NCBI GenBank assembly: GCA_025057315.1
Contig: JANWXW010000134.1
Location: 129-64,128, forward strand
DNA: 64,000 nt
DNA from: Myxococcota bacterium
GTDB taxonomy: Bacteria > Myxococcota_A > Polyangia > Palsa-1104 > JAEUJZ01
Direction of reading: 5' to 3'
The position numbers and the translations under genes were made by a program. Positions 1 to 20,167 of the stretch are shown piece after piece. Numbering within the stretch: the stretch's first letter is position 1; each line of letters opens with the position of its first letter. The notes below the pieces were generated by a model. The model made no database searches and was not told the DNA's origin. It saw nothing but the letters and a program-made list of their open reading frames with translations.

Positions 1-95
1 ATGGCTGCGCGGCCTGGGGGCAAGGCGCGGCGGCGTGGGCCGATGGCTGCGCGACATGGGGGCAAGGCGCGGCGGCGTGGGCCGATGGCTGCGCC
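1..95. repeat. 42-bp tandem repeat (about 2.3 copies visible; may continue off the window edge)
   Basis: ATGGCTGCGCGGCCTGGGGGCAAGGCGCGGCGGCGTGGGCCG at 1-42, a near-identical copy at 43-84 and a partial copy from 85; lies downstream of the HAO-like gene. Confidence 0.85.
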
Positions 96-219
96 ACCCA
101 GGAACGTCCCAGAGGAGAGAAGCGTGCAGCGCCCGGCCCCTGGGCACATGCCGCCGCGCGGGCGACGCTCCGGCCTCCTCCAGGGTGGCTGCCCCGTTCC
201 GTTCGGACAGGCTCCGCGG

Positions 220-1620
220 CTAGGGGCTGCCGCCGTAGCGCTGTTGGTAAAAGGCGTCGATGCGCGCGCGCTCCTGGGGGGAAAGCCCCTTGCGCCAGGC
301 GTGGCGTGGGTCGCTGTCGATCTGGCGCAGAATCGCCTCCACCGCGGGCACGCCCTGGCCAAGCTTGTGGGCCAGCGGCAGCAGGCGCGTGTAGAAGTTC
401 TCTGCCACCTCGAAGAAGCCGTGCCACTGGGTGTAGTCCGGCCCTTGCATCGAGGCGCCCATGCGCGCCCGCCGGCCCTCATGGTGCCAGAGGCGATAGA
501 AGTGCCACTCGATCTCGTCGTCGAAGGGGGTGTCTGTGATCTTGCCTGCCTCCCGCAGCGCGGTCATCAGGGCCTGCGCGGGAGCGGCGAACTTGTTGTT
601 CCATAGATCGATGCTGTCGTCGTAATTTTTGTAAAAGGCGGCCACGAAGTCCGGGGCGTGGCAGCGCTGGCACACATCCACCATCGCCTCGCGTCGCTGC
701 TCCCAGCCCTCCAGCTTTTGCGAGATCACCGGGCGCAGCGTCCACGAGATGCGCGCCCCTACGTCGTGGGTTACCTTCTGGTTGGGCGTGGCCGACATGT
801 GGCAGGTGGCGCAGGTGGGGGCCGCGCTGTAGTCCTGACCCACCACCCAGCGCTCGGCAGACAAGTTCATCTCGGCCTGGCGCGTGCGGTAGGCGATGCC
901 GTGCTTGCTCTCCTCGTAAATCTCCATCTGCGGATGGTCAGGGCCCATGTGGCACTTGCCGCACACCTCAGGCTGGCGCGCCATGGCCCGCGAGAAGGCG
1001 TGGCGGCTGTGGCACGCCGAGCAGGTGCCGGTGGAACCATCCAGGTTGATCCGTCCGATGCCGGTGTTGGGCCAGGTCGCCGGATCGAGCAGGGGCTTGC
1101 CCGACTTGTCGCGCAGCACCGCGCCGTCTGGGCCCTTGAGCAAGGCCAGCGTCGAGCCATGGCACTGCCAGCAGCCGTTGACCGCGGCCAGTCGGCCCTC
1201 TACCACCTCGCCGAGCACGTTGTCCAGGGAGCCAACGAAGCGGGCCGCCTGGCTGTGGTGGCTGTGGGCGAACTCGGCTGCAATCTCGGCGTGGCACGAG
1301 CCGCAGTCCTTGGGGGTCACCACGGTGGCGATGAGCGCGCCCTCGTGCCGGAACGCGTCCGGGTCCCCCTCGGCGGCGCGGTGGCACTCGAGGCAAGATA
1401 CGCCCAGCTGCGCGTGCTTGCTGTCTGCCCACTGGGCAACAATCGTCGGGGTCTTCTGTTCGTGGCATCGGACGCAGCGCTCGCTGGCACCGCTGGCTAC
1501 GGGCCTGAGCCGCCCGCCCGTCCGCGGCTTGCCGCCCTCCACCCACGCCACCAGCAGCAGCGTGGCCAGCAGGAGCAACGAGAGGATGGCGACAAGGATG
1601 CGTTTGGTTTCCAGGCTCAT
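220..1620 (-). CDS. Octaheme cytochrome c, hydroxylamine oxidoreductase (HAO) family, N-terminal membrane anchor
   Basis: Eight CxxCH motifs (CVRCH, CLECH, CGSCH, CWQCH, CSACH, CGKCH, CATCH, CQRCH); HAO-family segments CHMGPDHPQ..YEESKHG and WHHEGRRARMGASMQGPDYTQWHG; hydrophobic N-terminus. Confidence 0.9.
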   Translation of the reverse strand: MSLETKRILVAILSLLLLATLLLVAWVEGGKPRTGGRLRPVASGASERCVRCHEQKTPTIVAQWADSKHAQLGVSCLECHRAAEGDPDAFRHEGALIATVVTPKDCGSCHAEIAAEFAHSHHSQAARFVGSLDNVLGEVVEGRLAAVNGCWQCHGSTLALLKGPDGAVLRDKSGKPLLDPATWPNTGIGRINLDGSTGTCSACHSRHAFSRAMARQPEVCGKCHMGPDHPQMEIYEESKHGIAYRTRQAEMNLSAERWVVGQDYSAAPTCATCHMSATPNQKVTHDVGARISWTLRPVISQKLEGWEQRREAMVDVCQRCHAPDFVAAFYKNYDDSIDLWNNKFAAPAQALMTALREAGKITDTPFDDEIEWHFYRLWHHEGRRARMGASMQGPDYTQWHGFFEVAENFYTRLLPLAHKLGQGVPAVEAILRQIDSDPRHAWRKGLSPQERARIDAFYQQRYGGSP

Positions 1621-1641
1621 GGTCGGCTCCTCTGCCGCAGG

Positions 1642-2709
1642 TTAGTGCGCGGCCAGCGCCTCCCACACGGTCAAGCCGAGCAGGCACAGCACCGCGCTGG
1701 CGCCAATCCAGACGGACAGTTCGGACCCGGGGCGCCGGCGCCGGATCCACGCATCGACAAAGGGCCACACAAAGGCCAGCAAGGCCACCGCGCCAATGGA
1801 CAGGACAGAGGCGGTAAGACCGACGAGCTTCAGCCAGCGGAAGGTCCAGAAGAAGTACCACTCGGGCTTGATGTGGGCAGGCGTTCTAAGCGGGTTGGCC
1901 GGCTCGCCCAGCCCCGCCGGGAAGAGGATGGCCAGGCAGGACAGCAGAATGACCAGCCCGATGCCCATGATGACCTCGATCAGGACGTGATCCGGATAGA
2001 ACGGATAGGTCTTGTGGCCCTGTGGCCGTGCCCGGTCCCGAGCAAACTCAAAGGGGGTTACGCCATGCAGCCGGACGAGCAGGATGTGCAGCGCGAGCAG
2101 GATCGTGATGGCCGTCGGCAGCACGCCGATGTGAAAGATAAAGAAGCGGGTCAGGGTGTGGTCCCCCACGGCGTCCCCGCCACGCAGCAGGCGTGCCAGG
2201 TGCGTCCCCAACCACGGCACGGCCTCGGTGAGGTTGGTCGCGACCGTGATCCCCCAATAGGAAATCTGCTCGTAGAGAAGCGAGTAGCCAGTGAACCCGA
2301 ACAGGAGCGTTACCCCCAGCAGGCCCATGCCGATCATCCAGTTCAGCTCGCGTGGCCTGCGGTACGCGCCGGTGAAGAAGACGCGCATCATGTGCAGCCA
2401 GACCGCGACGATCATGAAGTGGGATGACCAGCGATGCAGGGAGCGCAAGTACCAGCCGTAAGGGATGTCGTGGGTGATGCGCCGCACCGACTCGTAGGCC
2501 GAAGCGGGCGAGGGCACGTAGTAGAAGGTGAGCAGGATGCCGGTTACCACCTGGACGACAAAGAGCAGCGCCGGCGTGCCGCCCAGGCACCACCACCAGC
2601 GCGCCAGGTGGTTGGGCACCGGCTCGTTGGAGTACACCTTAAGCGCCTCGAGGTCCAGGGGCACCCGCTCGCTCAGCCAGCCCTTGCGCCCTGCTGTGCC
2701 GCTGCTCAT
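1642..2709 (-). CDS. Cytochrome b of a Rieske/cytochrome b complex (b6-like part fused to subunit IV)
   Basis: Heme b ligands SLHRWSSH..WLHMMR and FHIGVLP..LALH; RPRELNW, GFTGYSL and PEWY motifs; WCLGG cysteine; TGATG overlap with the Rieske stop codon. Confidence 0.93.
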   Translation of the reverse strand: MSSGTAGRKGWLSERVPLDLEALKVYSNEPVPNHLARWWWCLGGTPALLFVVQVVTGILLTFYYVPSPASAYESVRRITHDIPYGWYLRSLHRWSSHFMIVAVWLHMMRVFFTGAYRRPRELNWMIGMGLLGVTLLFGFTGYSLLYEQISYWGITVATNLTEAVPWLGTHLARLLRGGDAVGDHTLTRFFIFHIGVLPTAITILLALHILLVRLHGVTPFEFARDRARPQGHKTYPFYPDHVLIEVIMGIGLVILLSCLAILFPAGLGEPANPLRTPAHIKPEWYFFWTFRWLKLVGLTASVLSIGAVALLAFVWPFVDAWIRRRRPGSELSVWIGASAVLCLLGLTVWEALAAH

Positions 2710-3221
2710 CAGAGATGCTCCTCTATCTCGATGAAGATGTTGTCTCCGATGGTCTCGACCGGGTAGCGCCTGAGGTCCTTGCCCTCATCGGCGGGTGGGC
2801 CGCGCAGGGCCTTGCCCTCCTTGCTGAACAGGCCGGCATGGCAGGGGCAGAGGAAGCCTCCCGCTGCCTCGTCCCAGCGCACCTTGCAGCCCAGGTGCGG
2901 ACACACATCGGACAGGGCCACCCACGCTGTGCCGGTGTTGCGGACAATGGCGCTTTGGCCGCCTGGCAGGGTGTAGGAGCGGGTTGCGCCTGGCGGTAGC
3001 TCCGACCGCGGTGCGAGGAAGATGCGGCGGCGTCGCGACAGGCCCTGGCGGGGGTAGAGGTAGCGCAGGACCAGGCGGGCGCCGGCCAGGGCGGAGGCGC
3101 CCAGGGCAGCCAGGGTGGTCAGCGAGACGAGACGAGACAAAAACACGCGACGGGGGGGAGGGGGATGCTCATCGGGGCTCGCTCCCAGCAGAGAAGATGT
3201 CGCCGTCCAGTTGGGGGACAT
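2709..3221 (-). CDS. Rieske [2Fe-2S] protein with Tat signal/anchor
   Basis: CPHLGC and CPCH motifs; RRVFL Tat motif followed by a hydrophobic helix. Start uncertain: in-frame ATG at 3221, or out-of-frame ATG at 3172 followed by a C-run (see findings). Confidence 0.9.
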   Translation of the reverse strand: MSPNWTATSSLLGASPDEHPPPPRRVFLSRLVSLTTLAALGASALAGARLVLRYLYPRQGLSRRRRIFLAPRSELPPGATRSYTLPGGQSAIVRNTGTAWVALSDVCPHLGCKVRWDEAAGGFLCPCHAGLFSKEGKALRGPPADEGKDLRRYPVETIGDNIFIEIEEHL

Positions 3222-3735
3222 GGCACTGTAGGCAGTTTGTCCGCTCCGGGTGGGGCGTGCGCAGGGGGCTGCCGCCACGCAGGCCGTGGCAGGTAAGGCA
3301 GCGGGTGCGCTCCTGCAGCGGATGGGGCAGGGCCGGCGGGGCGGCGGCATGCATGCGCGTGCCGCGGGGCGGGTGGCGCAGGCCGCGGAAGGCATTGAAG
3401 GTGTAGAGCGGGAGGCGCGTGTCGATCTCGATGTGGCACTGCAGGCAGTTTGTCCGCTCCGGGTGGGGCGTCACCGGCGCAAGGGCGCCATCTGGCAGCT
3501 GCAGACCGTCGCGGTGACAGCCCAGGCAGTCGCGCCGCCCGAGCGCATCCACCGGGTGGGGGATGACCGGTGGGGCGCCGTCATAAGGGCGGTGCCGCGC
3601 CCGGTATTGGGCACGCGCCTGGGCATCCCTGGCAGGCCCGGTTGCTTCCCGGCTGCAGGTCAACGCGCTGGCCAAAGCCATCCCCGCCACGGCCAGCAGC
3701 GCCGCCCGCCCCCTGCGCCGCCCCTGTCCCATCAT
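3169..3735 (-). CDS. napB: NapB-like cytochrome c subunit, tetraheme (internally duplicated)
   Basis: YDGAPPVIPH NapB signature; four CxxCH motifs (CLGCH, CLQCH, CLTCH, CLQCH); ATGA overlap with the napA stop; signal peptide with possible lipobox LTC. Confidence 0.85.
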   Translation of the reverse strand: MMGQGRRRGRAALLAVAGMALASALTCSREATGPARDAQARAQYRARHRPYDGAPPVIPHPVDALGRRDCLGCHRDGLQLPDGALAPVTPHPERTNCLQCHIEIDTRLPLYTFNAFRGLRHPPRGTRMHAAAPPALPHPLQERTRCLTCHGLRGGSPLRTPHPERTNCLQCHVPQLDGDIFSAGSEPR

Positions 3736-6089
3736 GCACGCTCCAGGCGCACGGCGCATTTTTTGTAGTCCGGCTCCCGCGAGATCGGACAGGTGGCGTC
3801 GAGCGTGAGCAGGTTGACGAGCACGGCCTCATCGAAGAACGGCACGAACACCAGGCCGCGCCGCGGCACCGAGCGCCCACTGACCGATGCGGTCAGGACG
3901 ATGCTGCCACGGCGGCTCACCAGCCGGGTGCGCGCCCCGTCCGCGATCCCGAGCGCCTCGGCGTCCTCGGGGTGGATCTCGACAAAGGCCCTGGGCACGG
4001 CGCGGTGGAGCTGGGGCACGCGACGGGTGAGGGAGCCGGTGTGCCAGTGCTCGAGCACGCGGCCCGTGCATAGCCAGAAAGGGTAGTCGCGGTCCGGCAC
4101 CTCAGGCGGTGGCTCGTAGGGGCGGGCCCATATGATGGCACGCCCGTCCTCCTTGGTGTTTTTGTAGAACCGGATGCCCTCGCCGGGCTGCACATAGGGA
4201 TCCTCGCCCTCTACATAGCGGCGCCGCGTCTCGCGGCCGCGGACCACCGGCCACCTGAGCCCGCGCGTGGCGACCAGCTCCTCGTGGGATGCTACGTCCT
4301 TGCCGGTGCCCAGGGTGAAGCGGCGGTATTCCTCATAGAGTGCCTGCTCCAACGAGATGCCCTTGTCCCTGGTTTCGGGGAAGTCGAACAGGTGGGCGCA
4401 GCCGGTGCGCCGCGCCACCTCCACGATCTGCCACAGGTCGGTGCGCGCCTCGCCGGGCGGCTCGACCATCTTGTGCCAGTGCTGCGTGCGGCGCTCGGTG
4501 TTGCCGTAGTAGCCCTCCTTCTCCACCCACATCGCCGAGGGCAGCACCACGTCGGCCAGGCGCGTGGTTTCGGTGGGGTAGACGTCAGAGACCACAATGA
4601 AGCGCCCGGGCTTGCTCATCGCCTCGCGGTAGCGCTTGGCGTTGGGCAGGGACTGCATGGGGTTGGTGCACTGGATCCACAGGAACCGGAGGTCGCCGCG
4701 GTCAAGCGCACGGAACATCTCGATGGCGTCGTAGCCCGGCGTGGTGGGGATTTTGTCTGCGGGGACCCGCCAGATCTCCGCCGCCTTCTTCACGTGCTCC
4801 GGGTTGTCGGTCACCATGTCCGCGGGGAGGCGGTTGCACGCCACGCCCACCTCGCGCACCGTGCCGCACGCAGAGGGCTGGCCGGTGAGCGAGAGCGAGG
4901 TGCACCCCGGCCGGCCGATTTTGCCGGTGAGCAGGTGCAGGTTGTGCAACAGGTTGTTCATCCAGGTGCCGCGCGTGTGCTGGTTGACGCCCATCGTCCA
5001 CAGGGACACCACGCGGGTGTGCGGGTCGCCGTAAAGGCGGGCCAGCTCCTCGATCTGCGCCGGGGCCACGCCCGCTAGCGCTGCCACCTTGTCGGGCGCG
5101 TAGTCGGCCAAAAACGCCGCATATTCCTCAAAGGTGATGGGCCGTGGCTCGTCCTTGAACGAGAACCGATCCTCCAGCCCGTAGCCCAGGCCCGTGCGTC
5201 CGGCCTTGAAGGCAACGTGCGCGGCGAGGAAGGCCCTGTCGATCTTGCCGTCGCGCACCAGGCAGTGGGCCACGGCATTGGCCAGCGCCAGATCCCCTTG
5301 CGGCAGGATCGGCAAGAACAGGTCCGCCTGCTCGGTGGTGCGCGTGCGGCGTACCGCGATGTCCACCACCTTGACAAAGGGCTGCCGCGCCTTCCGGTCC
5401 GTGATGCGGCTCCACAGGACCGGGTGCATCTCGGCCATGTTGGCGCCCCACAGGACCAGCACGTCGGCCTCGTCGAGGTCCTCGTAGCAGCCGGCTGGCT
5501 CATCGGAACCAAAGGTGGTCATGTGGCCGCTGACCGCAGAGGCCATGCACAGGCGCGCATTGGCCTCCAGGTTGTTGGAGGACAGGCCCGCTTTCATCCA
5601 TTTGAGTGCGGCGTATCCCTCGGGGATGGTGGACTGCCCAGAGAGATAGAGGCCAATGGCGCCCGGCCCTGCTGCAGCGAGCGCTTCGTTGATCTGGTGG
5701 GCAACCAGGTCGAGGGCCTCGTCCCAGGAGGCACGCACCAGGGGCCCGCCCTTGCGGTGGCGCACCTGGGGGACGGTGAGGCGATCCGCCCCATATAAGA
5801 TGAGGGGCGTGGCATAGCCCTTCACACAGAGCAGCCCCCGGTTCACTGGGTTTTTGACATCGCCCTGGACGCCCACCACGCGGCCGCGCTCGACGCCGAC
5901 CAGCACGCCGCAGCCGGTGCCGCAAAAGCGACACACGCCCTTGTGCCACACCAGGGCTCCATCCGAAGAGGCAGGCGCGCCCTGCCCGGGTCCCCCGGCG
6001 CGCTTGCAGGCAGGCAGACCCGCCAGCGCCGCCCCGTAGGCCGCGGCCTCCGCCAGCTGCAGAAGGAACTGCCGTCGCGTCTCGCTCAT
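3732..6089 (-). CDS. napA: Periplasmic nitrate reductase catalytic subunit
   Basis: Tat motif TRRQFL; [4Fe-4S] motif CRFCGTGC..C; Mo ligand ARLCMASA; WGANMAEMHP; SLTGQPSACGTVREVG; TGRVLEHWHTGS; PDYKKCAV; RBS GGAGG. Confidence 0.96.
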   Translation of the reverse strand: MSETRRQFLLQLAEAAAYGAALAGLPACKRAGGPGQGAPASSDGALVWHKGVCRFCGTGCGVLVGVERGRVVGVQGDVKNPVNRGLLCVKGYATPLILYGADRLTVPQVRHRKGGPLVRASWDEALDLVAHQINEALAAAGPGAIGLYLSGQSTIPEGYAALKWMKAGLSSNNLEANARLCMASAVSGHMTTFGSDEPAGCYEDLDEADVLVLWGANMAEMHPVLWSRITDRKARQPFVKVVDIAVRRTRTTEQADLFLPILPQGDLALANAVAHCLVRDGKIDRAFLAAHVAFKAGRTGLGYGLEDRFSFKDEPRPITFEEYAAFLADYAPDKVAALAGVAPAQIEELARLYGDPHTRVVSLWTMGVNQHTRGTWMNNLLHNLHLLTGKIGRPGCTSLSLTGQPSACGTVREVGVACNRLPADMVTDNPEHVKKAAEIWRVPADKIPTTPGYDAIEMFRALDRGDLRFLWIQCTNPMQSLPNAKRYREAMSKPGRFIVVSDVYPTETTRLADVVLPSAMWVEKEGYYGNTERRTQHWHKMVEPPGEARTDLWQIVEVARRTGCAHLFDFPETRDKGISLEQALYEEYRRFTLGTGKDVASHEELVATRGLRWPVVRGRETRRRYVEGEDPYVQPGEGIRFYKNTKEDGRAIIWARPYEPPPEVPDRDYPFWLCTGRVLEHWHTGSLTRRVPQLHRAVPRAFVEIHPEDAEALGIADGARTRLVSRRGSIVLTASVSGRSVPRRGLVFVPFFDEAVLVNLLTLDATCPISREPDYKKCAVRLERA

Positions 6090-6412
6090 GTTGCCTCCGT
6101 TGGCTCGCCCCCATCGACCAGCACGGAAACCAGGGACACGCCGCGCACGCCCGGCGTCTGCTGGATGCGGCGGAACAGGGCCTCGAAGGCCGTCGCCGTA
6201 CACTCGGTAAGGACCACCAGCCTCCCGTGCGCCGTGCCCGATACCGTGACGCCCCCGATGCCCGCCAGCGCTGCCACCAGGCCGGGGTCATCCTCCCCTT
6301 GTGGGTCGACCAGCAGCGAGGCGATGAGGCGCCCCACCGGGCTGCCCGTAGCAGGGGCCTTGCCGCTTCTGTGGGGAGGCTCGGGCCCCCCCCTGGTACG
6401 CAGGGTCTTCAT
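6086..6412 (-). CDS. napD: NapD chaperone
   Basis: IASLLV...GRLVVLTE...IQQTPGVRGVSLV pattern; immediately upstream of napA with ATGA overlap; RBS GAGG. Confidence 0.8.
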   Translation of the reverse strand: MKTLRTRGGPEPPHRSGKAPATGSPVGRLIASLLVDPQGEDDPGLVAALAGIGGVTVSGTAHGRLVVLTECTATAFEALFRRIQQTPGVRGVSLVSVLVDGGEPTEAT

Positions 6413-6581
6413 CCCTACCTCGCGCTGTAGTTGCTTGCCAGCAAGAATGGAGCCATTCGGGGCAGCGAGACGAGGGCTTGCAAGGATGGGAGCAGGGTTT
6501 GCGTGGTGGCGTTGCGCGCGTGCAAATCTTGCGGATGAGCCGGGGGTGGAGGCCAGCCGCGGCAGAGGGCTAGGACATCCC

Positions 6582-6694
6582 GGTTTTCTGGTCAGGGGGG
6601 CCTGGATGGCTCTGTCCCCGGCCATCAGGTGGTCGTTCGCCTGGGCTGGCCCTGGATGGTTTTCTGGTCAGGGGGGCCTGGATGGCTCTGTCCC
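6582..6694. repeat. Two identical 37-bp direct repeats separated by 39 bp
   Basis: GGTTTTCTGGTCAGGGGGGCCTGGATGGCTCTGTCCC at 6582-6618 and 6658-6694, in the divergent intergenic region upstream of napD. Confidence 0.85.
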
Positions 6695-6799
6695 GGTCCG
6701 GCTCGTTCTGGGCTGCTTGGTTGCGCGCGGCATCTGCTGATCGCTCTGCATGGCCCTGTGCTAGAGTGCTGGCCAGCCTATGCCCCATGGGAGGAGCCC

Positions 6800-8350
6800 A
6801 TGAGAGAGAATGCGGCTGTGCAATCTGCCATCGCGACCCTCCTGCTCGTCGCGGTGATGGGGGCCGTTGCATGCAAGACAGCTGACCCTTGTCCCCAGGG
6901 ACAGACGGAATGCAACGGGAGTTGCGTCCAGACCGCCTCCAACCCGGATCACTGCGGCGGCTGCGGCATCGCGTGCAGCGAGCTGCAGGTGTGCAGCCTG
7001 GGGCAATGTGCCGACAACTGCGCCGGGGGCCTGGCCCTGTGCGGCCGTCAGTGTGTGGACGTTGCCAGCGACACGATGAACTGCGGCGGCTGCGGCCGCC
7101 GCTGCGCCGAAGGGGCCGTCTGCGAGCAGGGCCGCTGCATGGGCGGCATGCCGGCATGCGGGGATCGGCTGGCCATCGAGGTGGGCGGAACCTTGGACCT
7201 GGACCTGCAGGTGGTAGAGGTCTCGGGCACGCTCACAAAAAATGGCGCCGCCGTGCCTGCGGGCAGAAACCGGGGCACGCTGGCCTTCGTCTCCCGCCGC
7301 GGTGGGCAGGTGCTGATGGCCCCGTTCCCGGAGACGGGTCCGGCCATGTACCGCGGGGAGGTCATCGTGGGCACGTATGACGTCTACTACCAGCCGCCGC
7401 TGCAATGCTTCGAGAGCGACCCGCTGCCATGCCAGCGGGCCCTGCTGCGCAGCGGGGTGGTGATTCAGCAGGGTGGGACGCTGGACCTGGATGCGAAGGT
7501 GGTGCGGGTCTCTGGGCGGCTGACCAAGAACGGGGCGGCGGTGCCGAGTGTGGGCAGGGAGCGCGGGCGGCTGGTGTTCGCGCTGCAAGGGGGCGGAAGC
7601 CGGATGATGCCGCCGTTTGGGCTGACGGGGGAGGCGCAGTACGAAGGGGAGGTGTTTGCCGGGACGTACGAGGTCAGGTATGAGCCGCCTGCGGGGTGCG
7701 GGGGCACGGGGGATGCGCTGCCCTGCCAGCAGGTGGTGCTGCGCAGCGGGGTGGTGATTCAGCAGGGTGGGACGCTGGACCTGGATGCGAAGGTGGTGCG
7801 GGTCTCTGGGCGGCTGACCAAGAACGGGGCGATCCTGCCCAGTACGGGCAGGGAGCGCGGCTGGTTGGTGTTCCAGCTGCAAGGGGGCGGAGGCCGGAGG
7901 ATGCCGCCGTTTGGGCCGATGGGGGAGGCGCAGTACGAGGGGGAGGTGTTTGCCGGGACGTACGAGGTCAGGTATGAGCCGCCGCTGGGCTGCGGGGGGA
8001 TGTGGGATGTGATGCCCTGCCAGGTGGCGGTGCTGCGCAGCGGGGTGGTGATTCAGCAGGGGGGGACGCTGGACCTGGATGCGAAGGTGGTGCGGGTCTC
8101 TGGGCGGCTGACCAAGAACGGGGCCGCCGTGCCGAGTGGGCGCAGGGGCCGGGGCTGGCTGTTGTTCAACCTGGAGGGGGGCGGAGGCCGGAGGATGCCG
8201 CCGTTTGGGCCGACCGGAGAGGCGCGGTACGAGGGCGAGGTGTTCACAGGCAAGTACGATGTCCTGTACCAACCCGAGCTCGACTGCCAGCCGGGCGATT
8301 CGCTCCCGTGCCAGCATCATCTGATTAGAGGGTGCCTCCCGAGCGGCTGA
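6800..8350 (+). CDS. Lipoprotein with myxobacterial Cys-rich repeats and four ~98-aa beta-rich repeats
   Basis: RBS GGAGGAG; lipobox AVAC; two CV.T.S...CGGCG..C units; four GGTLDLD..VV.VSG.LTKNGA...G.Y.V.Y repeats with 294-bp DNA periodicity. Confidence 0.85.
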   Translation: MRENAAVQSAIATLLLVAVMGAVACKTADPCPQGQTECNGSCVQTASNPDHCGGCGIACSELQVCSLGQCADNCAGGLALCGRQCVDVASDTMNCGGCGRRCAEGAVCEQGRCMGGMPACGDRLAIEVGGTLDLDLQVVEVSGTLTKNGAAVPAGRNRGTLAFVSRRGGQVLMAPFPETGPAMYRGEVIVGTYDVYYQPPLQCFESDPLPCQRALLRSGVVIQQGGTLDLDAKVVRVSGRLTKNGAAVPSVGRERGRLVFALQGGGSRMMPPFGLTGEAQYEGEVFAGTYEVRYEPPAGCGGTGDALPCQQVVLRSGVVIQQGGTLDLDAKVVRVSGRLTKNGAILPSTGRERGWLVFQLQGGGGRRMPPFGPMGEAQYEGEVFAGTYEVRYEPPLGCGGMWDVMPCQVAVLRSGVVIQQGGTLDLDAKVVRVSGRLTKNGAAVPSGRRGRGWLLFNLEGGGGRRMPPFGPTGEARYEGEVFTGKYDVLYQPELDCQPGDSLPCQHHLIRGCLPSG

Positions 8351-8447: not shown

Positions 8448-9500
8448 TCAGCCTGCAGGTGGGTCCCAGGGCGGCCCGCCCGTGGGTGGCGGCACATTGA
8501 AGGGACGGTCCGGTGCCAGCGGGGCCAGCTCCAGCAGCCGTGCGCGCAGCTCGTAGGCTGAGGCCGGCCGGTCTGCCGCTGCGCGCGCCACCAGCTGGGT
8601 CAGCAGCTCCTCGATGGGGTCAGCCATCCGCACCGTGGGGTCAATGGCGCGCGGCCACTTCCGCGGTGCATACAGGTGGGAGCTGAGCATGACCGCCTGG
8701 TTGGTGCCGGGAAAGGGCAGCTGCCCGACGATCATCTCCCACAGCATGATGCCCACAGCATACAGGTCGCTGCGTCCATCCAGGGGCTCGCCGGCCAGCA
8801 TCTCCGGCGAGACATATGCCGGCGTGCCCAACACCGCCGAGGTGCGCACGCCGGGGCCCCGGCACAGCTTGGCCACGCCGAAGTCCACCACCTTGACAAA
8901 GTCGGTCTCCCCTGCGCGGTTGAGCAGCACCACGTTCTCCGGTTTCATGTCCCGGTGCACGATGCCATGCCGGTGTGCCTCGCCCAGCGCCTCGCACACC
9001 TGGGCCGCGATGCGCAACGCCCGCCGCGGCGACAACACCCCTTGGCCCAGCAGCGTGCCCACGTCCTTTCCCTCCAGCAGCTCCATGACCAGGTAGGGCG
9101 TGCCCGTCTCCGTGACATCGTAGTCAAGTAGCACCACGATGTGCGGGTTGCGCAGCTGCGCTATCATGCGCGCCTCGTCTAGAAAGCGAGCGCGCACGCG
9201 GGGGTCGCGGAGGGAGCTGGAGCGGAGCAGCTTGACCGCCACGCGCAGGCCCAGCTCCAGGTCCGCCGCCTCGAAGACCGTACCGAACCCGCCGCTGCCG
9301 ATCTGGCGCACCAGCTGGTAGCGGTCCGACAGGACCATCCCGCTCTGGATGCTGCGCGCCGCCTCGCGCGCCGCCTCCTCGGACGACAGGGGCTCTGGCT
9401 GCCGCGGCAGCCGCTCGGGCGGCAACCCAAGCGGTGCAGCGCAGCGCACACAGAAGCACGCATCGCCGGAGTTGGGATAGTGGCAAACGGAACAGTCCAT
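8448..9500 (-). CDS. Ser/Thr protein kinase with N-terminal zinc ribbon
   Basis: GSGGFG, VAVK, HRDMKPEN, DFG, GTPAYVSPE motifs; N-terminal CSVC...CVRC; no TM helix. Confidence 0.92.
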   Translation of the reverse strand: MDCSVCHYPNSGDACFCVRCAAPLGLPPERLPRQPEPLSSEEAAREAARSIQSGMVLSDRYQLVRQIGSGGFGTVFEAADLELGLRVAVKLLRSSSLRDPRVRARFLDEARMIAQLRNPHIVVLLDYDVTETGTPYLVMELLEGKDVGTLLGQGVLSPRRALRIAAQVCEALGEAHRHGIVHRDMKPENVVLLNRAGETDFVKVVDFGVAKLCRGPGVRTSAVLGTPAYVSPEMLAGEPLDGRSDLYAVGIMLWEMIVGQLPFPGTNQAVMLSSHLYAPRKWPRAIDPTVRMADPIEELLTQLVARAAADRPASAYELRARLLELAPLAPDRPFNVPPPTGGPPWDPPAG

Positions 9501-9551
9501 CCATGGGCACCCTACCACAGGGCCCCTTCAGACGCGAAAGACCCCTCCGCC

Positions 9552-14732: not shown

Positions 14733-16304
14733 ATGAAACTGCGCCTGCTGCCGTGGATCCTGGCCGCCATCTGCTTCGCGCCGGGCCTGGGCGGTCAGTT
14801 TGTGCTGGACGACCTGCTGGCCATCGTCACCAACCCGGTGGTCACCGGACAGAAGGGGGCCCACGAGGCCTTCCTGCGCACCTTCTGGGGCCGGCCCCTG
14901 CACGAGCCGCCGACCGCCTACCGACCCCTGACGACGCTGCTGTTTCGTCTGGAGCATGCGGTGCTGGGACCCTCTCCGCTTGGCTTTCACGCCGTTGGCC
15001 TGGCGCTCTATCTGGCGCTCGTTTGGGCCGCGTTCCGCCTGGCGCGCCTTTACCTGGAGGAGCGCGCCGCCGCGCTCGCTATCTCTTTGTTTGCCGTCTG
15101 CCCCCTGCACGTAGAGAACGTCACCAGCCTGGTGGGGGCCGCCGACATGCTGGCCCTGCTCGCCTCGCTGGGGGCGCTGCTGCTGCTGTCACCCACGCTG
15201 GGCGGAGGTCCCGCGCCATCGGTTGCCCGCACCCTTGGGGCCGCGGGGCTGCAAGGGCTGGCGCTGCTGAGCAAAGAGGGGGCGGCCACCTGGCCGGCTG
15301 TGGCCGCCGTGCTGCTCGTGTGCTCGCTGCCGCCAGGGGCCCCTTGGAGGCAGCGGCTGCGGCGCCTCGGGCCGGCCCTGTGGCTGGGCGGGGTGACGCT
15401 CGGCTACCTGCTGCTGCGCGTGCGCCTGCTGCCGCTTACCTTCCACAACCCCATTCCGGACGACGTGCTGGCCGGTGCCAGCGTGGGGGCGCGCGTGCGC
15501 TTTGCCCTGGGCCTGCTGGCCAGCTACGCACGCCTGCTGGCGGTGCCGCTGGACCTGTGCACCGGGCGCAAGTACGCCGAGGTGGCGCTGCCCCAGACCC
15601 TGGACGGGGCTGCCGTGGCCGGGGCGGTGCTCCTGGGGGCGGCGCTGTGGGTCACACTGCGCCAGGGGTGCGCGGGGCGGCCGCCGTGGTTGCTGTGCGC
15701 GCTCATCTGCTTCTCGCTCTACTCGTCGCTGCTGTTCCCCGTGCCGGAGGCCATGGCCGACCGGTTCATGCTCGCGCCGAGCCTGTTTCTGTCGCTCTGG
15801 CTGGGACCCGCCTTGGCTCAGCTGGCGCGGGGCGGGACCGCACGGCGGGCGCTGCTTGTGCTGCTGCTGGGCAGCCACGGGGCGCTGGCCGCTGCCCAGA
15901 CGCGGGTGTGGCGCACGACCCTGACGCTGCTGGAGCACAGCGTGGTCGCTTGCCCGAACTCGATTCACAACCACGTCCGCCTGGCCGACGAGCTGAGCAG
16001 GGTCGGCCGCCACGCGGAGGCAGCCTGGCACTATGCGGTGGCTCGTGCGGGCCGCGCGCACTTTCCCCACCCTTGGTCCCATCCGGCCCGCGAGGCAGAG
16101 CTGGACCTGCCACCCCAGGTGCGGCTGGCGCGCCTGCCCGAACTGCTCGGTGCCACCGAGCCGGCGGACCGCTACCGCGCCCGCCTGGCGGCCTTTTTGA
16201 TGCACCTTGGACGGCCTCAGGAGGCTCGCCTGGTGCGCCTGGCCTCCGAGCTCCCCCTGGCACCGGAAAATCAGAACGCCAGCGTCACCCCAGCACGGCC
16301 ATAG
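14733..16304 (+). CDS. Multi-pass membrane protein, TMTC-like GT-C glycosyltransferase with C-terminal TPR-like region
   Basis: FVLDD..IVTNP, YRPLTT, PLHVENV..LVG.ADML, LLSKEG, MADRF..PS and WR....L motifs typical of TMTC-like proteins. Confidence 0.75.
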   Translation: MKLRLLPWILAAICFAPGLGGQFVLDDLLAIVTNPVVTGQKGAHEAFLRTFWGRPLHEPPTAYRPLTTLLFRLEHAVLGPSPLGFHAVGLALYLALVWAAFRLARLYLEERAAALAISLFAVCPLHVENVTSLVGAADMLALLASLGALLLLSPTLGGGPAPSVARTLGAAGLQGLALLSKEGAATWPAVAAVLLVCSLPPGAPWRQRLRRLGPALWLGGVTLGYLLLRVRLLPLTFHNPIPDDVLAGASVGARVRFALGLLASYARLLAVPLDLCTGRKYAEVALPQTLDGAAVAGAVLLGAALWVTLRQGCAGRPPWLLCALICFSLYSSLLFPVPEAMADRFMLAPSLFLSLWLGPALAQLARGGTARRALLVLLLGSHGALAAAQTRVWRTTLTLLEHSVVACPNSIHNHVRLADELSRVGRHAEAAWHYAVARAGRAHFPHPWSHPAREAELDLPPQVRLARLPELLGATEPADRYRARLAAFLMHLGRPQEARLVRLASELPLAPENQNASVTPARP

Positions 16305-18538
16305 AGCGGGAAGTCCCGCTCGGGCAGGATCGGGTTGAAGCTGCGGGTAAACAGATGCCGCGGCCCCTGCAGCGGCGCGCCCTCCAGCAGGGCCCAGAGG
16401 GTGACATGCTGGGTGAGGGAAATCTCCAGCACGGCCTGCGTCAGGAGGCGGATGCCGACGAAGCGGCTGAGCACCGGACGCCCCTCGAGCTGGTACTGCT
16501 CCCCCGTCGGGTCGTAGGTCGGCATGCGGTACATTTGCGTGTCGGGATCAAAGCCGGCCGCATCGGAGGCCGCGTTGGGCAGCGGGGTCCCGTCGGGGGC
16601 CAGGCCACCGGTGCAGCGGTCCTCGTCGTGCTCCCGCCGGGTCAGCAGCACCAGTTGCTCTGTCTTGCCCTCCAGCGCGAGCCGGCCCAGCTCCTCGGCG
16701 GTGGGGCAGTGCTGGTCGGCATACACCTGCAGCATCGGGCGCAGCGTCAGGCGCACACGCCGGTGCGGCACCACGGTCAGGGGGATGCCGCCCTCGAAGA
16801 CAAAGCTGTTGCGGGCGCGAGGCCCACCGCCCGCTGAGAAGTAGACGCTGGCGCCCAGGGCCACGATGCGCCGGTGGAGCAGCTGGGCGCGCAGGTGCAG
16901 GCCCACATCCGTTTGGTACAGGGTGGTGCGGATGTCGACCCCCCCGTCGAGGCCGAACCAGCCGCGGCGCAGCAGCCCGATCGTCGTGCGGGCGTTGAGA
17001 AAATAGGGATAGCCAGCGCCCGCATCGACGGTGAATGCGCCCCGCTCGAGCGTAAGCGCAGCAAACGAGCTCAAGGGGGCACGCCGCGCTGGGTCTGCCG
17101 CGCTCGGCGGCTGCTCCCTGGTCTCGGACAGCGCCTCCAGCTGGACCTGGACCAGCGTCTGCTCCCCGGCCGTGACATCGACCTGCTCCAGGTGGCTCTG
17201 ATGTCCATCCAGCTGCAGCGCCACGGTGTGCGTACCCGCCGCAATCGCGGCCGGGCCATAGGGCGTGTGCCCCACGGCGGTGCCATCGATGAACAAACGG
17301 GCGCCTGCAGGCTCTGACTGCACCCGCAGCTGGCCCTCGCGCCGCAGCTCCACGGTGACCACCTCGTGGCCGCCGGGGCGCAGCTCCACGTCCTTGCGCA
17401 CCGGGGCGTAGCCCTTCTTGCGCACCAGCACGCTGGTTCGCCCCGCCGGGACCTGGATGCCCTGCGGGCTCAGCAGAGCGGCCTCGTCCTGCAGCTGGCC
17501 GTTCACAACGTAGTGCGCTCCGGCAACAGGATGGGCCATGATGACGCGCAGCGTGCCCACCCCTGCCTCCGTGCTCCGCTCCAGCTGCACCTTCTCCACC
17601 CGCTGCTGGCCGGCTGCCACCGTGACGGTGCGCGCAAGCGGCCGGTAGCCCTCGGCGCGCACATCGAGCCAGTGCGGTCCGGCCGCCACCTGGTCGATGG
17701 GGCGGTTGGCCTTGCCCACCCACATTCCGTCCAGCACCACGTCTGCCTCGACCCCCGGGACAAGCACCAGCAGCGACCCGGTCCGCACCGCAGGCGGGCT
17801 GGGCCGGGCCACCACGTGCACCAGCTGGTCGGCCACGACCTGAACGACCCGCCGCCAGGGCAGGGTGGTGGGGTCGGGCAGATGCACCTCCACGTGGTGC
17901 TCCCCCTCGCTCAACCCCTCCACCACGACCGGCGCCGCCCCCCGCGGCACGCCATCCACCAGGACCTGCGCCCCTGGGGCCGCCGCCACGCGCATGGCGC
18001 CGTAGCCCAGCCGGGCTTTCAGGTCCACCACCAGCTTCTGCCTCTCGGCCGCCTCCAGCGTCAGGGTGCGGACATAGGCGACCAGGCCCGGCTTGCGCAC
18101 CTCGATGCGGTGGCTGCCCGCCGCCACCTGCACCGTCTGGGGAAGCCGGCCTGCCAGCGCGCCGTCCACCCAGATCTCGGCCCCCACCGCCTCGGCTCGG
18201 GCGCCCACCACCTCCAGCCAGGCCGGGGCCTGCTCCAGCACGAAGTGAAGCCGGCTCGGGCGCTCTATGGCCACGCGCTCCTCCACGGGCTTGTGGCCTG
18301 ATAGCTCCAGGCGCACCGTGTGCGTGCCGCGCTCCAGCAGGAGGCGAAACCGCGGCGAGGTGTGTCCTTGGATGCCTCCGTCTCGGCCATCCACATACAC
18401 GGCGGCCCCCGGGGGGACAGAGTCCACACAGACCCAGTACCGGGGCGTGGGCGCCGCCCCGACCCGGGCCGGGATCCAGATGGCTCCCAGCACCCAGGCC
18501 AGGCGCGCCAGGGCGGAGCGAGGCCCGGGGCTGTGCAT
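16271..18538 (-). CDS. Multi-PEGA-domain protein with putative C-terminal outer-membrane beta-barrel
   Basis: Repeated S.P.GA.V.VDG...G..P...G.H.V PEGA units (about 6); amphipathic beta-strands ending in terminal Phe (GVTLAF); start uncertain. Confidence 0.8.
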   Translation of the reverse strand: MHSPGPRSALARLAWVLGAIWIPARVGAAPTPRYWVCVDSVPPGAAVYVDGRDGGIQGHTSPRFRLLLERGTHTVRLELSGHKPVEERVAIERPSRLHFVLEQAPAWLEVVGARAEAVGAEIWVDGALAGRLPQTVQVAAGSHRIEVRKPGLVAYVRTLTLEAAERQKLVVDLKARLGYGAMRVAAAPGAQVLVDGVPRGAAPVVVEGLSEGEHHVEVHLPDPTTLPWRRVVQVVADQLVHVVARPSPPAVRTGSLLVLVPGVEADVVLDGMWVGKANRPIDQVAAGPHWLDVRAEGYRPLARTVTVAAGQQRVEKVQLERSTEAGVGTLRVIMAHPVAGAHYVVNGQLQDEAALLSPQGIQVPAGRTSVLVRKKGYAPVRKDVELRPGGHEVVTVELRREGQLRVQSEPAGARLFIDGTAVGHTPYGPAAIAAGTHTVALQLDGHQSHLEQVDVTAGEQTLVQVQLEALSETREQPPSAADPARRAPLSSFAALTLERGAFTVDAGAGYPYFLNARTTIGLLRRGWFGLDGGVDIRTTLYQTDVGLHLRAQLLHRRIVALGASVYFSAGGGPRARNSFVFEGGIPLTVVPHRRVRLTLRPMLQVYADQHCPTAEELGRLALEGKTEQLVLLTRREHDEDRCTGGLAPDGTPLPNAASDAAGFDPDTQMYRMPTYDPTGEQYQLEGRPVLSRFVGIRLLTQAVLEISLTQHVTLWALLEGAPLQGPRHLFTRSFNPILPERDFPLYGRAGVTLAF

Positions 18539-18940
18539 ACAACCTCGGCGAGCGGTTTGAAGGGCCATCGTCCTGTGGTTCGGCGGCTCGCTCCGCGGGG
18601 TCAGCGACGACCGGCGGCCTGCCGCCCCCTGGAGCAAGCACCCCGGCTCGCCAGGGCCCGGGCCCTCCAGAGACCGTTGAGCCGCCTCCGCGCTCGCCAG
18701 CCTGTCTCTTTAAGCCTTTCTCGTTTGGCGAGAGGAAATCAAGGCCATCGTGCGCTGGTCTGGTTGTTTGGTTCGCACCCCCTGCTCACGGTCGGCCTCC
18801 GCCCAAAAACGACCACAGAGAGGTCATATTTCGGGCAGCCCTGCCGACTCCCCGCCGGCTGCTGCGCCGGCTCCCGTCGGCGGAAGCCTGACAGAGCCCG
18901 CGCCGGACAACTGGCCCGACCCTTGCTTAGGGGAGGGCGC

Positions 18941-20167
18941 ATGGGGTCCCGGTTGGGTCAGACCATCGGCAGCTACCACATCGTGCGCGAGCTGGGGTCG
19001 GGGGGGATGGGCACTGTCTACGAGGTCATGCACCAGCAACTAGGCCGGCGGGCCGCGATCAAGATCCTGCGCCCCGAGGCCTCGCGGCGCGGGGACCTGG
19101 TGGAGCGGCTGTTCAACGAGGCGCGCGCGGTGAACCTGGTGGGCCACCCGGGGTTGGTGGACATCTTCGAGCTGGGGCGACTGCCGGACGGCTCGGCCTA
19201 CATTCTGATGGAGTACCTGCGCGGCGAGACGCTGGCGGCGCGGATGCAGCGGCAGAGCATCGAGGTGGGCCAGTGTGTGCGCCTGGGCCGGCAGGCGGCA
19301 GCAGCCCTGGCGGCGGCCCACGGCTGTGGCATCGTCCACCGCGACATCAAGCCGGAGAACCTGATGATCGTCCCCGACCCGGAGGTGCTTGGCGGCGAGC
19401 GGGTCAAGATCCTCGACTTCGGCATTGCTAAGTACGCCGACAGGGCCGGGAGCCTGCATCTGCGCCAGGGCGCCACGGCCAACGGCATGGTGCTCGGCAC
19501 CCCGGTGTACATGGCTCCCGAGCAGTGTCGTGGGGGCGCGGTGGATGGACGCGCGGACGTGTACGCCCTGGGGGTGGTGCTCTACGAGATGCTCTGCGGC
19601 CGGCCCCCCTTTGTGGCCAGCTCCTCGGGGATGGTGATGGTCCTGCACCTGACCCAGCAGCCCCCCGATCTGCGCGGCATGATCTCGGGGCTGTCGCCGG
19701 TGCTGTACGCGCTGGTGGAGGCGATGCTGGCCAAGGACCCGGACCGCCGACCGTCGATGCGGACGGTGTGCGAGGTGCTGGAGCGGCTGGAGGCTCAGCC
19801 ACAGGCCCTGACGAGGCCGCAGCCCAGTGCGCCGGCCCCGTCGCAGGACACGCTCCGGCCGGTGAGCCGAACCATGCTGCCCCCCAGGCAGTGGCCCCGG
19901 CGCTCGCGCATCGCCGCGGCGATGCTGGGCGTTGGCATCGGGGTCCTTATGCTGCTTGGGCTGCTGGAGCGACATCGGGGCGGGGCCATCCACGCGGTGC
20001 CCATCCGCGCGGTGCCAGAGTCGACCTCGCCGCCGCCAGGGCGACTGCTCCCCCCGCCGCACCTCTGGGTGCCGGAGCAGGTGCCAGCGGTGGAGCCCCC
20101 GCCCGCAGGCTGGGCAGCTGTCGAGCCGATCCGCATGCGGCTTCGGCGCGCTCGGTCCGCCCCGTGA
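18941..20167 (+). CDS. Membrane-associated Ser/Thr protein kinase
   Basis: RBS GGGAGG; [30 protein letters not shown] motifs; C-terminal TM helix and Pro-rich tail. Confidence 0.92.

Follow-up and report, generated by a model that had tools for sequence, protein, structure and literature searches.

Nitrate reductase genes joined to Rieske, cytochrome b and octaheme cytochrome genes in a Myxococcota draft genome: a candidate NapC/NapGH-independent module for nitrate and nitrite respiration

The six-gene operon and its products

This study concerns an operon of six genes near one end of a contig in a Myxococcota draft genome (5.45 Mb in 176 contigs, 96.3% complete and 0.12% contaminated). The stretch analyzed, referred to here as the window, is 64,000 nucleotides long and corresponds to positions 129-64128 of contig JANWXW010000134.1 (C78), which begins 128 nt before the window start. 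The genes, all on the minus strand, follow one another head to tail from 6412 to 220 in the order napD, napA, a tandem napB, the gene of a Rieske [2Fe-2S] subunit, cytochrome b and an octaheme cytochrome c of the HAO/IhOCC family. Periplasmic nitrate reductase (Nap) genes are thus directly followed by a putative quinol-oxidizing pair and by a cytochrome that resembles known nitrite-reducing enzymes, and we read the whole as a candidate module for nitrate and nitrite respiration.

A sequence-only reading of this DNA had described six co-oriented genes joined by stop/start overlaps or a 21-bp gap. The gene order and all junctions but one agree with this description. napD and napA, and likewise napA and napB, share an ATGA overlap, the Rieske and cytochrome b genes overlap by one base in TGATG, and cytochrome b is separated from the octaheme gene by a 21-nt gap that holds a GAGGAG ribosome-binding site. 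The start ATG of napD at 6412 is also preceded by GAGG. The napB/Rieske junction differs from the description. The ATG in overlap with the stop of napB does not lie in the Rieske reading frame. Alignment led to the in-frame ATG at 3221 as the start, and the resulting N-terminus matches those of 26 aligned homologues. With this start the two genes overlap by 53 nt. A terminator scan found no convincing internal terminator in the operon (four terminator-like sites against 2.4 expected), and the single weak terminator-like site on the operon strand lies inside cytochrome b. In an independent assembly of the probable source run, a hot springs metagenome, one contig of 6466 nt spans window positions 146-6611, so the operon is not an assembly chimera. 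Other hot springs metagenome runs cover the operon stretch by fragments only (three DNA runs from two studies altogether, with no RNA run among them).

The first three genes form the Nap block. napD (6086-6412; all operon genes are on the minus strand) encodes a 108-aa NapA maturation chaperone whose Pfam NapD score is marginal (29.7 bits against a gathering cut-off of 28) and which has no NCBIfam match; its position directly before napA fits NapD. napA (3732-6089) encodes the 785-aa catalytic subunit of periplasmic nitrate reductase and clears both equivalog cut-offs (NF010055, 988.4 bits against 904; TIGR01706, 962.4 bits against 930.55). Its translation carries the Pfam domains Molybdop_Fe4S4, Molybdopterin and Molydop_binding and a twin-arginine (Tat) leader motif, TRRQFL. 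The tandem napB (3169-3735) encodes a four-heme periplasmic cytochrome of 188 aa, possibly a lipoprotein, with four CxxCH and two APPxIPH motifs (Pfam NapB, 45.9 bits against 25.1). Its halves match each other at E 6e-10, and its best matches in the PDB are the diheme NapB chains 3ML1_B, 1JNI and 1OGY_B. By sequence, the NapB unit has been duplicated in tandem: where canonical diheme NapB has two haem c sites, this protein has two NapB units and four sites. All four haem motifs are kept in 15 of 15 aligned NapB homologues encoded next to related napA genes. A Cys occupies a lipobox-like position in most of these homologues, the window protein reading ALTC, a non-canonical lipobox, and the four-heme NapB is probably lipid-anchored.

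The Rieske gene (2709-3221) encodes a 170-aa protein with an RR motif and an N-terminal membrane helix (Pfam Rieske, 47.6 bits), and its CPHLGC and CPCH motifs are conserved in all 26 aligned homologues. In the 355-aa cytochrome b (1642-2709) a b6-type N-terminal part is fused to a subunit-IV-like part, as seen in Pfam (Cytochrome_B, 182 bits; Cytochrom_B_C, 38.8 bits) and in NCBIfam, which marks stretches of cytochrome b6 and of b6-f subunit IV. His92, His106, His193 and His208 are invariant in 27 of 27 sequences. This four-His ligand pattern, the Rieske motifs and the adjoining genes place the pair in the bc1/b6f superfamily. Cys41, within WWWCLGG, is present in the window protein and 17 of the 27 sequences, at the position where b6-type cytochromes bind haem ci, and the spacing of the His residues is likewise b6-like. 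The operon Rieske protein reads CPCHAG where a second copy in the same genome reads CPCHRS; loss of this Ser presumably goes with low-potential, menaquinol-type Rieske centres, which we treat as a lead only.

That second copy lies on another contig (C158, locus L002, 863-3114), where a gene for a 175-aa Rieske protein is followed by one for a 625-aa fusion of cytochrome b with a C-terminal diheme cytochrome c. It is presumably the housekeeping complex III, feeding the single haem-copper oxidase of the genome (on C53; 506 bits to COX1). Since the housekeeping pair sits there, the Rieske/cytochrome b pair linked to nap is an extra, dedicated copy. Neither Pfam nor NCBIfam matched any of the six operon proteins to cytochrome c1 or cytochrome f, PF02167 not having been searched elsewhere in the genome, and these scans support the earlier statement that the cluster contains no napC, napG/H, nrfA or cytochrome c1. 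The gene directly after cytochrome b is that of the octaheme.

The sequence-only reading had further proposed that the operon is self-contained, which the search of the rest of the genome upholds. NapC/NirT (PF03264), NrfA (PF02335), NirS (PF02239) and NirK (TIGR02376) gave no match in the host genome, and NapH, NarG and NirB gave only weak matches below cut-off in unrelated-looking frames, all in a draft of 176 contigs in which absences are no proof. Because neither NapC nor NapGH was found, the Rieske/cytochrome b pair is the only candidate quinol oxidase for Nap. A Nor-type second haem-copper oxidase was likewise not found in the host genome, and the NosZ propeller had no match there, which is a weak negative since the control genomes were equally silent. 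With neither of these found, nitric oxide (NO) would lack a respiratory sink.

The octaheme cytochrome and its membrane anchor

The last gene of the operon (220-1620) encodes a 466-aa, predicted membrane-anchored protein with eight CxxCH motifs. It is the only protein of the host genome that matches PF13447 (101.9 against 21.9 bits). Its nearest solved structure by sequence is 4QO5, IhOCC of Ignicoccus hospitalis (E 1e-44 when searched with the window protein alone, 2.1e-68 with a profile built from 45 sequences). The two are about 25% identical, and the alignment begins at query residue 37, past the anchor helix. In the profile search 4QO5 is followed by 6H5L, the 'reducing HAO-like' Kustc0457/0458 (E 1.7e-32), Nitrosomonas HAO (E 4e-31) and anammox HOX and HDH. 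The AlphaFold (AF2) model of the protein (mean pLDDT 87.8, pTM 0.79) has a helix at residues 3-30, and its Foldseek TM-scores are 0.71 to 4QO5, 0.57 to 6H5L, 0.55-0.60 to HAO/HOX/HDH and about 0.3 or less to ONR and NrfA, whose chains match the octaheme only at E above 1e-2. The two closest solved structures, 4QO5 and then 6H5L (Kustc0458), both come from the reductive side of the family. Soares et al. (2022) group IhOCC with HAO/HDH in one clade (clade 1) and describe it as an octaheme nitrite reductase without a P460 haem.

Across 45 aligned octahemes the eight CxxCH motifs and ten further His residues are invariant or nearly so. The segment GPDHPQ (D228-H229) aligns with the IDH/VDH of HAO-like and Nitrosomonas HAO chains, with H229 invariant and D228 at least 90% conserved, and we take the pair to be the catalytic Asp-His of HAO. 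Since every haem motif is CxxCH, with no CxxCK among the eight, the protein is not a CxxCK enzyme of the NrfA/ONR type. Judged by these residues, the octaheme looks like an enzyme and not a mere relay. We also considered the N-terminus as a quinol-binding module like that of NapC/NrfH, a region in which weak NCBIfam NapC/NrfH-like matches occur (E 1e-4 to 6e-3), and rejected this candidate because the HAO fold accounts for all eight haems, with no further one on the helix.

A scan of one genome per prokaryotic species confirmed at least 579 relatives of the octaheme, and the best 80 loci were examined and compared by tblastn with the six window proteins. Rieske and cytochrome b genes lie directly upstream of the octaheme gene in 18 of these 80 loci, in one of which (L031) the contig is cut within cytochrome b; we call this arrangement the trio. 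For a comparison of N-termini, ten loci from Myxococcota genomes were added, and L025, L030 and L032, with open reading frames (ORFs) cut by a contig end, and the distant paralogues L136 and L137 were left out. The trio octahemes (28 of 28 loci) have a conserved, uncleaved hydrophobic N-terminal helix that ends in a VVAWVEGGK-like stretch, and the stand-alone octahemes (59 of 59) have ordinary signal peptides. Within the first 31 residues, 11-23 are identical to the window octaheme in every trio locus, against 3-10 in every stand-alone locus. The switch between anchor and signal peptide is a simple sequence marker that predicts which members of the family are bound in a complex.

The anchored and soluble forms interleave on a maximum likelihood tree of 88 rows (quick IQ-TREE, SH-aLRT only), for which the N-terminal 70 columns were removed. 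At least seven changes between the two forms are seen, at up to 70% identity, and 12 soluble Acidobacteriota enzymes are the sister group of the window octaheme. Soluble and anchored members thus share one and the same catalytic domain, which argues that the anchored form is still an enzyme.

The sequence-only reading had placed the octaheme in the position of cytochrome c1 and had named multimer structure prediction as one way to check its claims. Both the gene position directly after cytochrome b and the conserved helix speak for this placement, and so does the predicted packing. The model of cytochrome b with the octaheme reached a median score of 0.72 (runs of 0.81, 0.72 and 0.50) against 0.00 for the best of three controls. 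Of 80 solved complexes 58 reach the mark used for such scores, as do 2 of 110 mismatched pairs; these counts hold only roughly here because we supplied our own alignments to the model. With a partner pLDDT of at least 86, octaheme residues 1-29 lie on cytochrome b residues 101-113 and 330-355, the runs agreeing in at least 0% of contacts. The model supports a putative docking of the octaheme helix on cytochrome b.

With moderate confidence, we consider the operon to be a NapC/NapGH-independent module for nitrate and nitrite respiration built from two blocks. The Rieske protein, cytochrome b and the octaheme would form a dedicated b6-type quinol oxidase in which an octaheme enzyme stands in place of cytochrome c1/f, held on cytochrome b by its conserved N-terminal transmembrane helix. 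Quinol would be oxidized at the Qo site, with one electron passing via the Rieske cluster into the haem chain of the octaheme and the other through the b haems in a Q-cycle. The octaheme would reduce nitrite at its five-coordinate catalytic haem, most likely to ammonium. The block of napD, napA and tandem napB would add nitrate reduction, with NapA making nitrite from nitrate and the four-heme NapB taking electrons from the octaheme or the Rieske side and passing them on to NapA. By analogy with what is known of Rieske/cytochrome b complexes, we infer that both Nap and the nitrite reduction would be electrogenic, with a gain in protons.

Ammonium is favored as the product because IhOCC is by far the closest relative, because epsilon-HAOs without the cross-linking Tyr reduce nitrite and hydroxylamine, and because no NO reductase was found. 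The same complex could instead reduce nitrite to NO, either as the start of a truncated denitrification or as an NO-generating pathway. The Kuenenia enzyme of 6H5L (HAOr), whose product is NO, is second-best by profile (E 1.7e-32) and fold (TM-score 0.57), and Kuste4574, the HAO-like subunit of the anammox R/b-3 complex, has been proposed to form NO. On the other hand, IhOCC is much closer on both counts (E 2.1e-68, TM-score 0.71), no Nor-type oxidase or NosZ that could give NO a respiratory sink was found in the genome (the latter with its silent control), and the epsilon-Hao of Campylobacterota, which has no cross-linking Tyr, reduces nitrite and hydroxylamine in vitro (Haase et al., 2017, as quoted in Ferousi, 2021). 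We regard NO as an unlikely product, though a serious alternative to ammonium.

Linkage in other genomes and origin of the operon

The sequence-only reading implied that the linkage of nap, Rieske, cytochrome b and octaheme genes should recur, and it does. napA and tandem napB adjoin the trio in 12 of the 18 trio loci, three of them in the window order (L008, L010 and L033) and nine in the order Rieske-cytochrome b-octaheme-nap. Together with three more Myxococcota loci that hold the trio and nap, this gives 15 other linked loci in two orders and under at least four phylum labels. The labels are Acidobacteriota, Myxococcota, Planctomycetota and Chlorobiota, two unclassified 'bacterium' metagenome-assembled genomes (MAGs) and one Rickettsiales. 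NapD precedes napA in 5 of 5 related loci tested; these napD genes were not picked up by tblastn and were found by a Pfam scan of the ORFs in the gaps. Because the two sets of genes are joined in either order across loci, they behave as two blocks, napD-napA-tandem napB and Rieske-cytochrome b-octaheme. No conserved neighbor was found in the remaining loci, and the octaheme relatives mostly carry just the annotation 'multiheme c-type cytochrome'.

Some features of these loci are recorded here as side observations. The locus labelled as uncultured Rickettsiales (L029) has an arrangement of trio and nap nearly identical to that of the Myxococcota genome G427 and is its sister on the tree, so that the label or the binning is doubtful. 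Judged by eye only, a porin-like ORF (outer-membrane beta-barrel or alginate-export type) lies within a few kb of the octaheme in 16 loci, in L010 directly before napA (2313-3959), and a Crp/Fnr-like ORF lies near the octaheme in seven.

The two blocks can also be separated. The trio occurs without nap in seven loci of six genomes from the host's own family and order, and at one locus (L050) an octaheme-napA-napB arrangement has a soluble octaheme and no Rieske/cytochrome b in view. This separability would fit two independent systems, with Nap fed by another quinol dehydrogenase and the trio acting on an unrelated substrate or oxidatively, passing electrons from hydroxylamine or NO into the quinone pool; the octaheme's Tyr cross-link status, which alignment does not settle, also leaves room for it. 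We nevertheless consider it very unlikely, as the blocks are translationally coupled here by gene overlaps, the linkage is repeated in both gene orders and under four or more phylum labels at the 15 other loci, no alternative donor for Nap was found in the genome, and the closest solved relatives of the octaheme are reductive enzymes.

Of 401 sampled genomes of the host's phylum, 30 have the octaheme at E <= 1e-100, and of the 41 genomes of a search among relatives 15 have it at E <= 0.001, the host genome being counted in both cases. The copies in the relatives are 46-57% identical to the window protein. NapA was found in only one of 40 relatives and in none of 22 genomes of the same family. 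Since the trio thus occurs without nap, it has a job of its own, and the system centres on the substrate of the trio, nitrite or another N-oxide, and not on nitrate. These counts bear on another alternative, in which the octaheme is only a wire from the Rieske protein to tandem NapB and NapA, nitrite is excreted, and any activity at the open haem is vestigial or serves hydroxylamine or NO detoxification. The gene position of the octaheme, directly after cytochrome b where c1/f would stand, and its membrane anchor would suit a wire, and Nap needs a donor in a genome in which no NapC or NapGH was found. However, a wire to Nap has no place in relatives that carry the trio and no NapA. The Asp-His pair and the His pattern are also as conserved in the anchored octahemes as in the soluble enzymes, and the two forms interconvert on the tree. 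We think this alternative quite unlikely.

The relatives also show some variety in the trio itself. One genome (G034) has two separate trios (L129 on C24 and L130 on C44), with 53-55% identity to the window octaheme, and another (G006) has two copies of a distant octaheme (35% identity) 4.5 kb apart and with no Rieske/cytochrome b (L137, C17). In four loci from the host's own family (L132-L135; genomes G017, G002, G016 and G019) the trio octaheme is longer, at 546 aa, and the Rieske protein has a C-terminal extension of 50-80 residues that is rich in charged residues. These four form a separate, long-branched clade on the octaheme tree.

Several points weigh against a nitrate- and nitrite-reducing module of the kind proposed above. 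The genome is a 176-contig draft, which limits what its absences can say. Of the 87 family members examined, 59 stand alone without Rieske/cytochrome b, so the octaheme family needs no such complex. True NrfA (E ~1e-120) occurs in 6 of 40 relatives, two of which (G018 and G020) carry both it and the trio; NrfA and the trio are therefore not mutually exclusive. In the complex model the calibration is approximate, and the low bound on shared contacts means that the position of the helix is not reproducible between runs. Solved bc1/b6f complexes also have a helix of the c subunit on cytochrome b, so that the pass may partly reflect this likeness, and HAO-family enzymes are usually trimers whereas Rieske/cytochrome b complexes are dimers, a mismatch in stoichiometry. 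phmmer aligns no HAO chain to the C-terminal 113 residues of the octaheme, and the profile alignments stop at residue 365-408; Tyr410 is invariant in the octaheme alignment, and no residue of the octaheme could be matched to the Tyr that forms the cross-link in oxidative HAOs. The octaheme probably has no Tyr cross-link, going by its kinship with IhOCC. Ammonium is not assured as the product because 6H5L makes NO and Kuste4574 is a proposed NO maker. Finally, in literature outside most subscription journals we found no biochemical test of the Caldithrix, anammox or related trios.

A broader view, which we put forward as possible and hold only tentatively, is that the trios are widespread and so far unrecognized energy-conserving quinol:nitrite oxidoreductases. 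The octaheme would have switched repeatedly between a soluble and a docked form, and the nap block would be a plug-in that completes a proton-motive chain from nitrate to ammonium. Carriers among the Acidobacteriota, Myxococcota, Planctomycetota and others would then be invisible to surveys based on nrfA and onr.

With regard to the host, the earlier reading had supposed a myxobacterium-like organism. This is borne out, as the locus in a genome of the same phylum is 100% identical to a Bradymonadales record and the upstream neighbors fit. These neighbors are Myxococcota-like and include Ser/Thr kinases, a PEGA protein and Cys-rich lipoproteins. The two Ser/Thr kinases and a protein with four PEGA domains, at 8448-9518 (minus strand), 18320-20167 (plus) and 16271-18637 (minus), have no obvious link to nitrogen respiration, and there is no Fnr/NarL-type regulator near the operon. 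The gene divergent from the operon (6629-8350, plus strand) encodes a large secreted protein with Stig1-like Cys-rich modules followed by four near-identical repeats of ~95 aa.

The operon itself points elsewhere. The locus with the same gene order in a Polarisedimenticolia MAG (L008) is 74% identical in napA, 69% in cytochrome b and 72% in the octaheme, and the window octaheme falls within an 18-row clade of mainly Acidobacteriota rows (SH-aLRT 99). These identities and the tree make it probable that the host obtained the complete operon by horizontal transfer from an Acidobacteriota-like donor. Composition does not help on this question because the GC content of the operon (68.5%) equals that of the genome (68.2%).

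Two repeats flank the operon. The divergent intergenic region 5' of napD (6413-6800) is the presumed promoter region. No sigma-70-like site was found there. It holds an exact 37-nt direct repeat at ~6582-6618 and ~6658-6694, of which blastn-short found no further copy in the host genome; the repeat could be a regulator binding site or an insertion remnant. Downstream of the operon, Tandem Repeats Finder reports a GC-rich array at 1-94 (period 42, 2.2 copies, 96% matches) that begins 126 nt past the octaheme stop (window 95-219 lying between) and runs to the contig start. The contig thus ends 348 nt beyond the octaheme stop within this 42-nt repeat, and for this reason the far downstream side of the operon is not in view. 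The same array also ends contig C26 (18722-18824), next to an rplM-like ribosomal protein gene, with a weaker copy on C4, and reads cover it ~4x as deeply as the operon. The assembly probably breaks at this array, and C26 and C78 may be joined there. A continuation of the operon past the contig end was considered and rejected, as the closest loci with the same gene order (L008 and L010) have no co-directional gene after the octaheme and stop with it.

Comparison with known systems

Nitrate respiration by Nap and nitrite reduction by cytochrome c enzymes are textbook cases of terminal steps in which no energy is itself conserved. If the proposed module is real, the use of a Rieske/cytochrome b complex to oxidize quinol would bring a Q-cycle into both of them and so change the energy yield of nitrate ammonification. 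With canonical NapABC and NapAB-GH systems, the window operon shares NapD, NapA and a NapB-type cytochrome. It differs from them in having no NapC, NapG or NapH, in a NapB that is doubled to four haems, and in a Rieske/cytochrome b pair as the sole quinol oxidase of the operon.

The octaheme can be compared with three groups of proteins. IhOCC, the closest solved structure, has the same eight-haem, HAO-type fold, but it is archaeal and only ~25% identical. The epsilon-Hao enzymes, likened here by description only, are also HAO-family octahemes, and their electron donor is thought to be a cytochrome of the NapC/NrfH type, not a Rieske/cytochrome b complex. According to PMC5317091, epsilon-Hao occurs in nitrate ammonifiers without NrfA, often beside nap genes. 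The third group is found in the anammox R/b-3 complex (kuste4569-4574), a b6-type Rieske/cytochrome b complex in which HAO-like Kuste4574, thought to reduce nitrite, stands in place of cytochrome f. That complex has no linked Nap and a proposed product of NO, and it has, according to PMC12954380, a further hexa-/octaheme cytochrome, a subunit of NAD(P) oxidoreductase type and a split between b6 and subunit IV, none of which is seen in the window operon.

The octaheme family is large, with at least 579 relatives in species-representative genomes, and this has consequences for surveys of ammonifiers. In PMC10716430, a global survey screened for nrfA and onr, and IhOCC-type sequences served only as negative controls. 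If these octahemes make ammonium in vivo, the diversity of ammonifiers in soils and sediments has been underestimated, notably among the Acidobacteriota.

The closest precedent is the nap locus of Caldithrix abyssi. Kublanov et al. (2017; PMC5317091) describe it (Cabys_2564-2556) as napM-napA-napG...napH-Rieske-cytb-epsilon-Hao, in a genome without NapC and NrfA, and propose that Rieske/cytochrome b feeds the tetraheme Nap cytochrome and/or the octaheme epsilon-Hao and so makes the chain electrogenic. The core inference of the sequence-only reading is thus not new and has been in print since 2017 for this organism. In both cases NapA, a tetraheme cytochrome, a Rieske protein, cytochrome b and an octaheme are encoded in one locus of a genome without NapC and NrfA. 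The Caldithrix locus also has NapG and NapH, an alternative quinol oxidase of which none was found in the window operon. Its tetraheme is named NapM, whereas that of the window is a tandem NapB; the two were compared by description only, and the Caldithrix 'NapM' might be the same tandem NapB. In literature outside most subscription journals, we found no paper on the Rieske-cytochrome b-octaheme trio beyond those on Caldithrix and anammox bacteria. What the present operon adds to Caldithrix is the absence of NapGH, the tandem NapB, the wide distribution of the linked blocks, which makes the arrangement much more widespread than reported, and the anchor as a marker. For a first biochemical test of a nitrate/nitrite reductase driven by Rieske/cytochrome b the module is well suited, and the window operon and its 15 related loci, with no NapGH alternative, offer a cleaner system for such a test than Caldithrix does.

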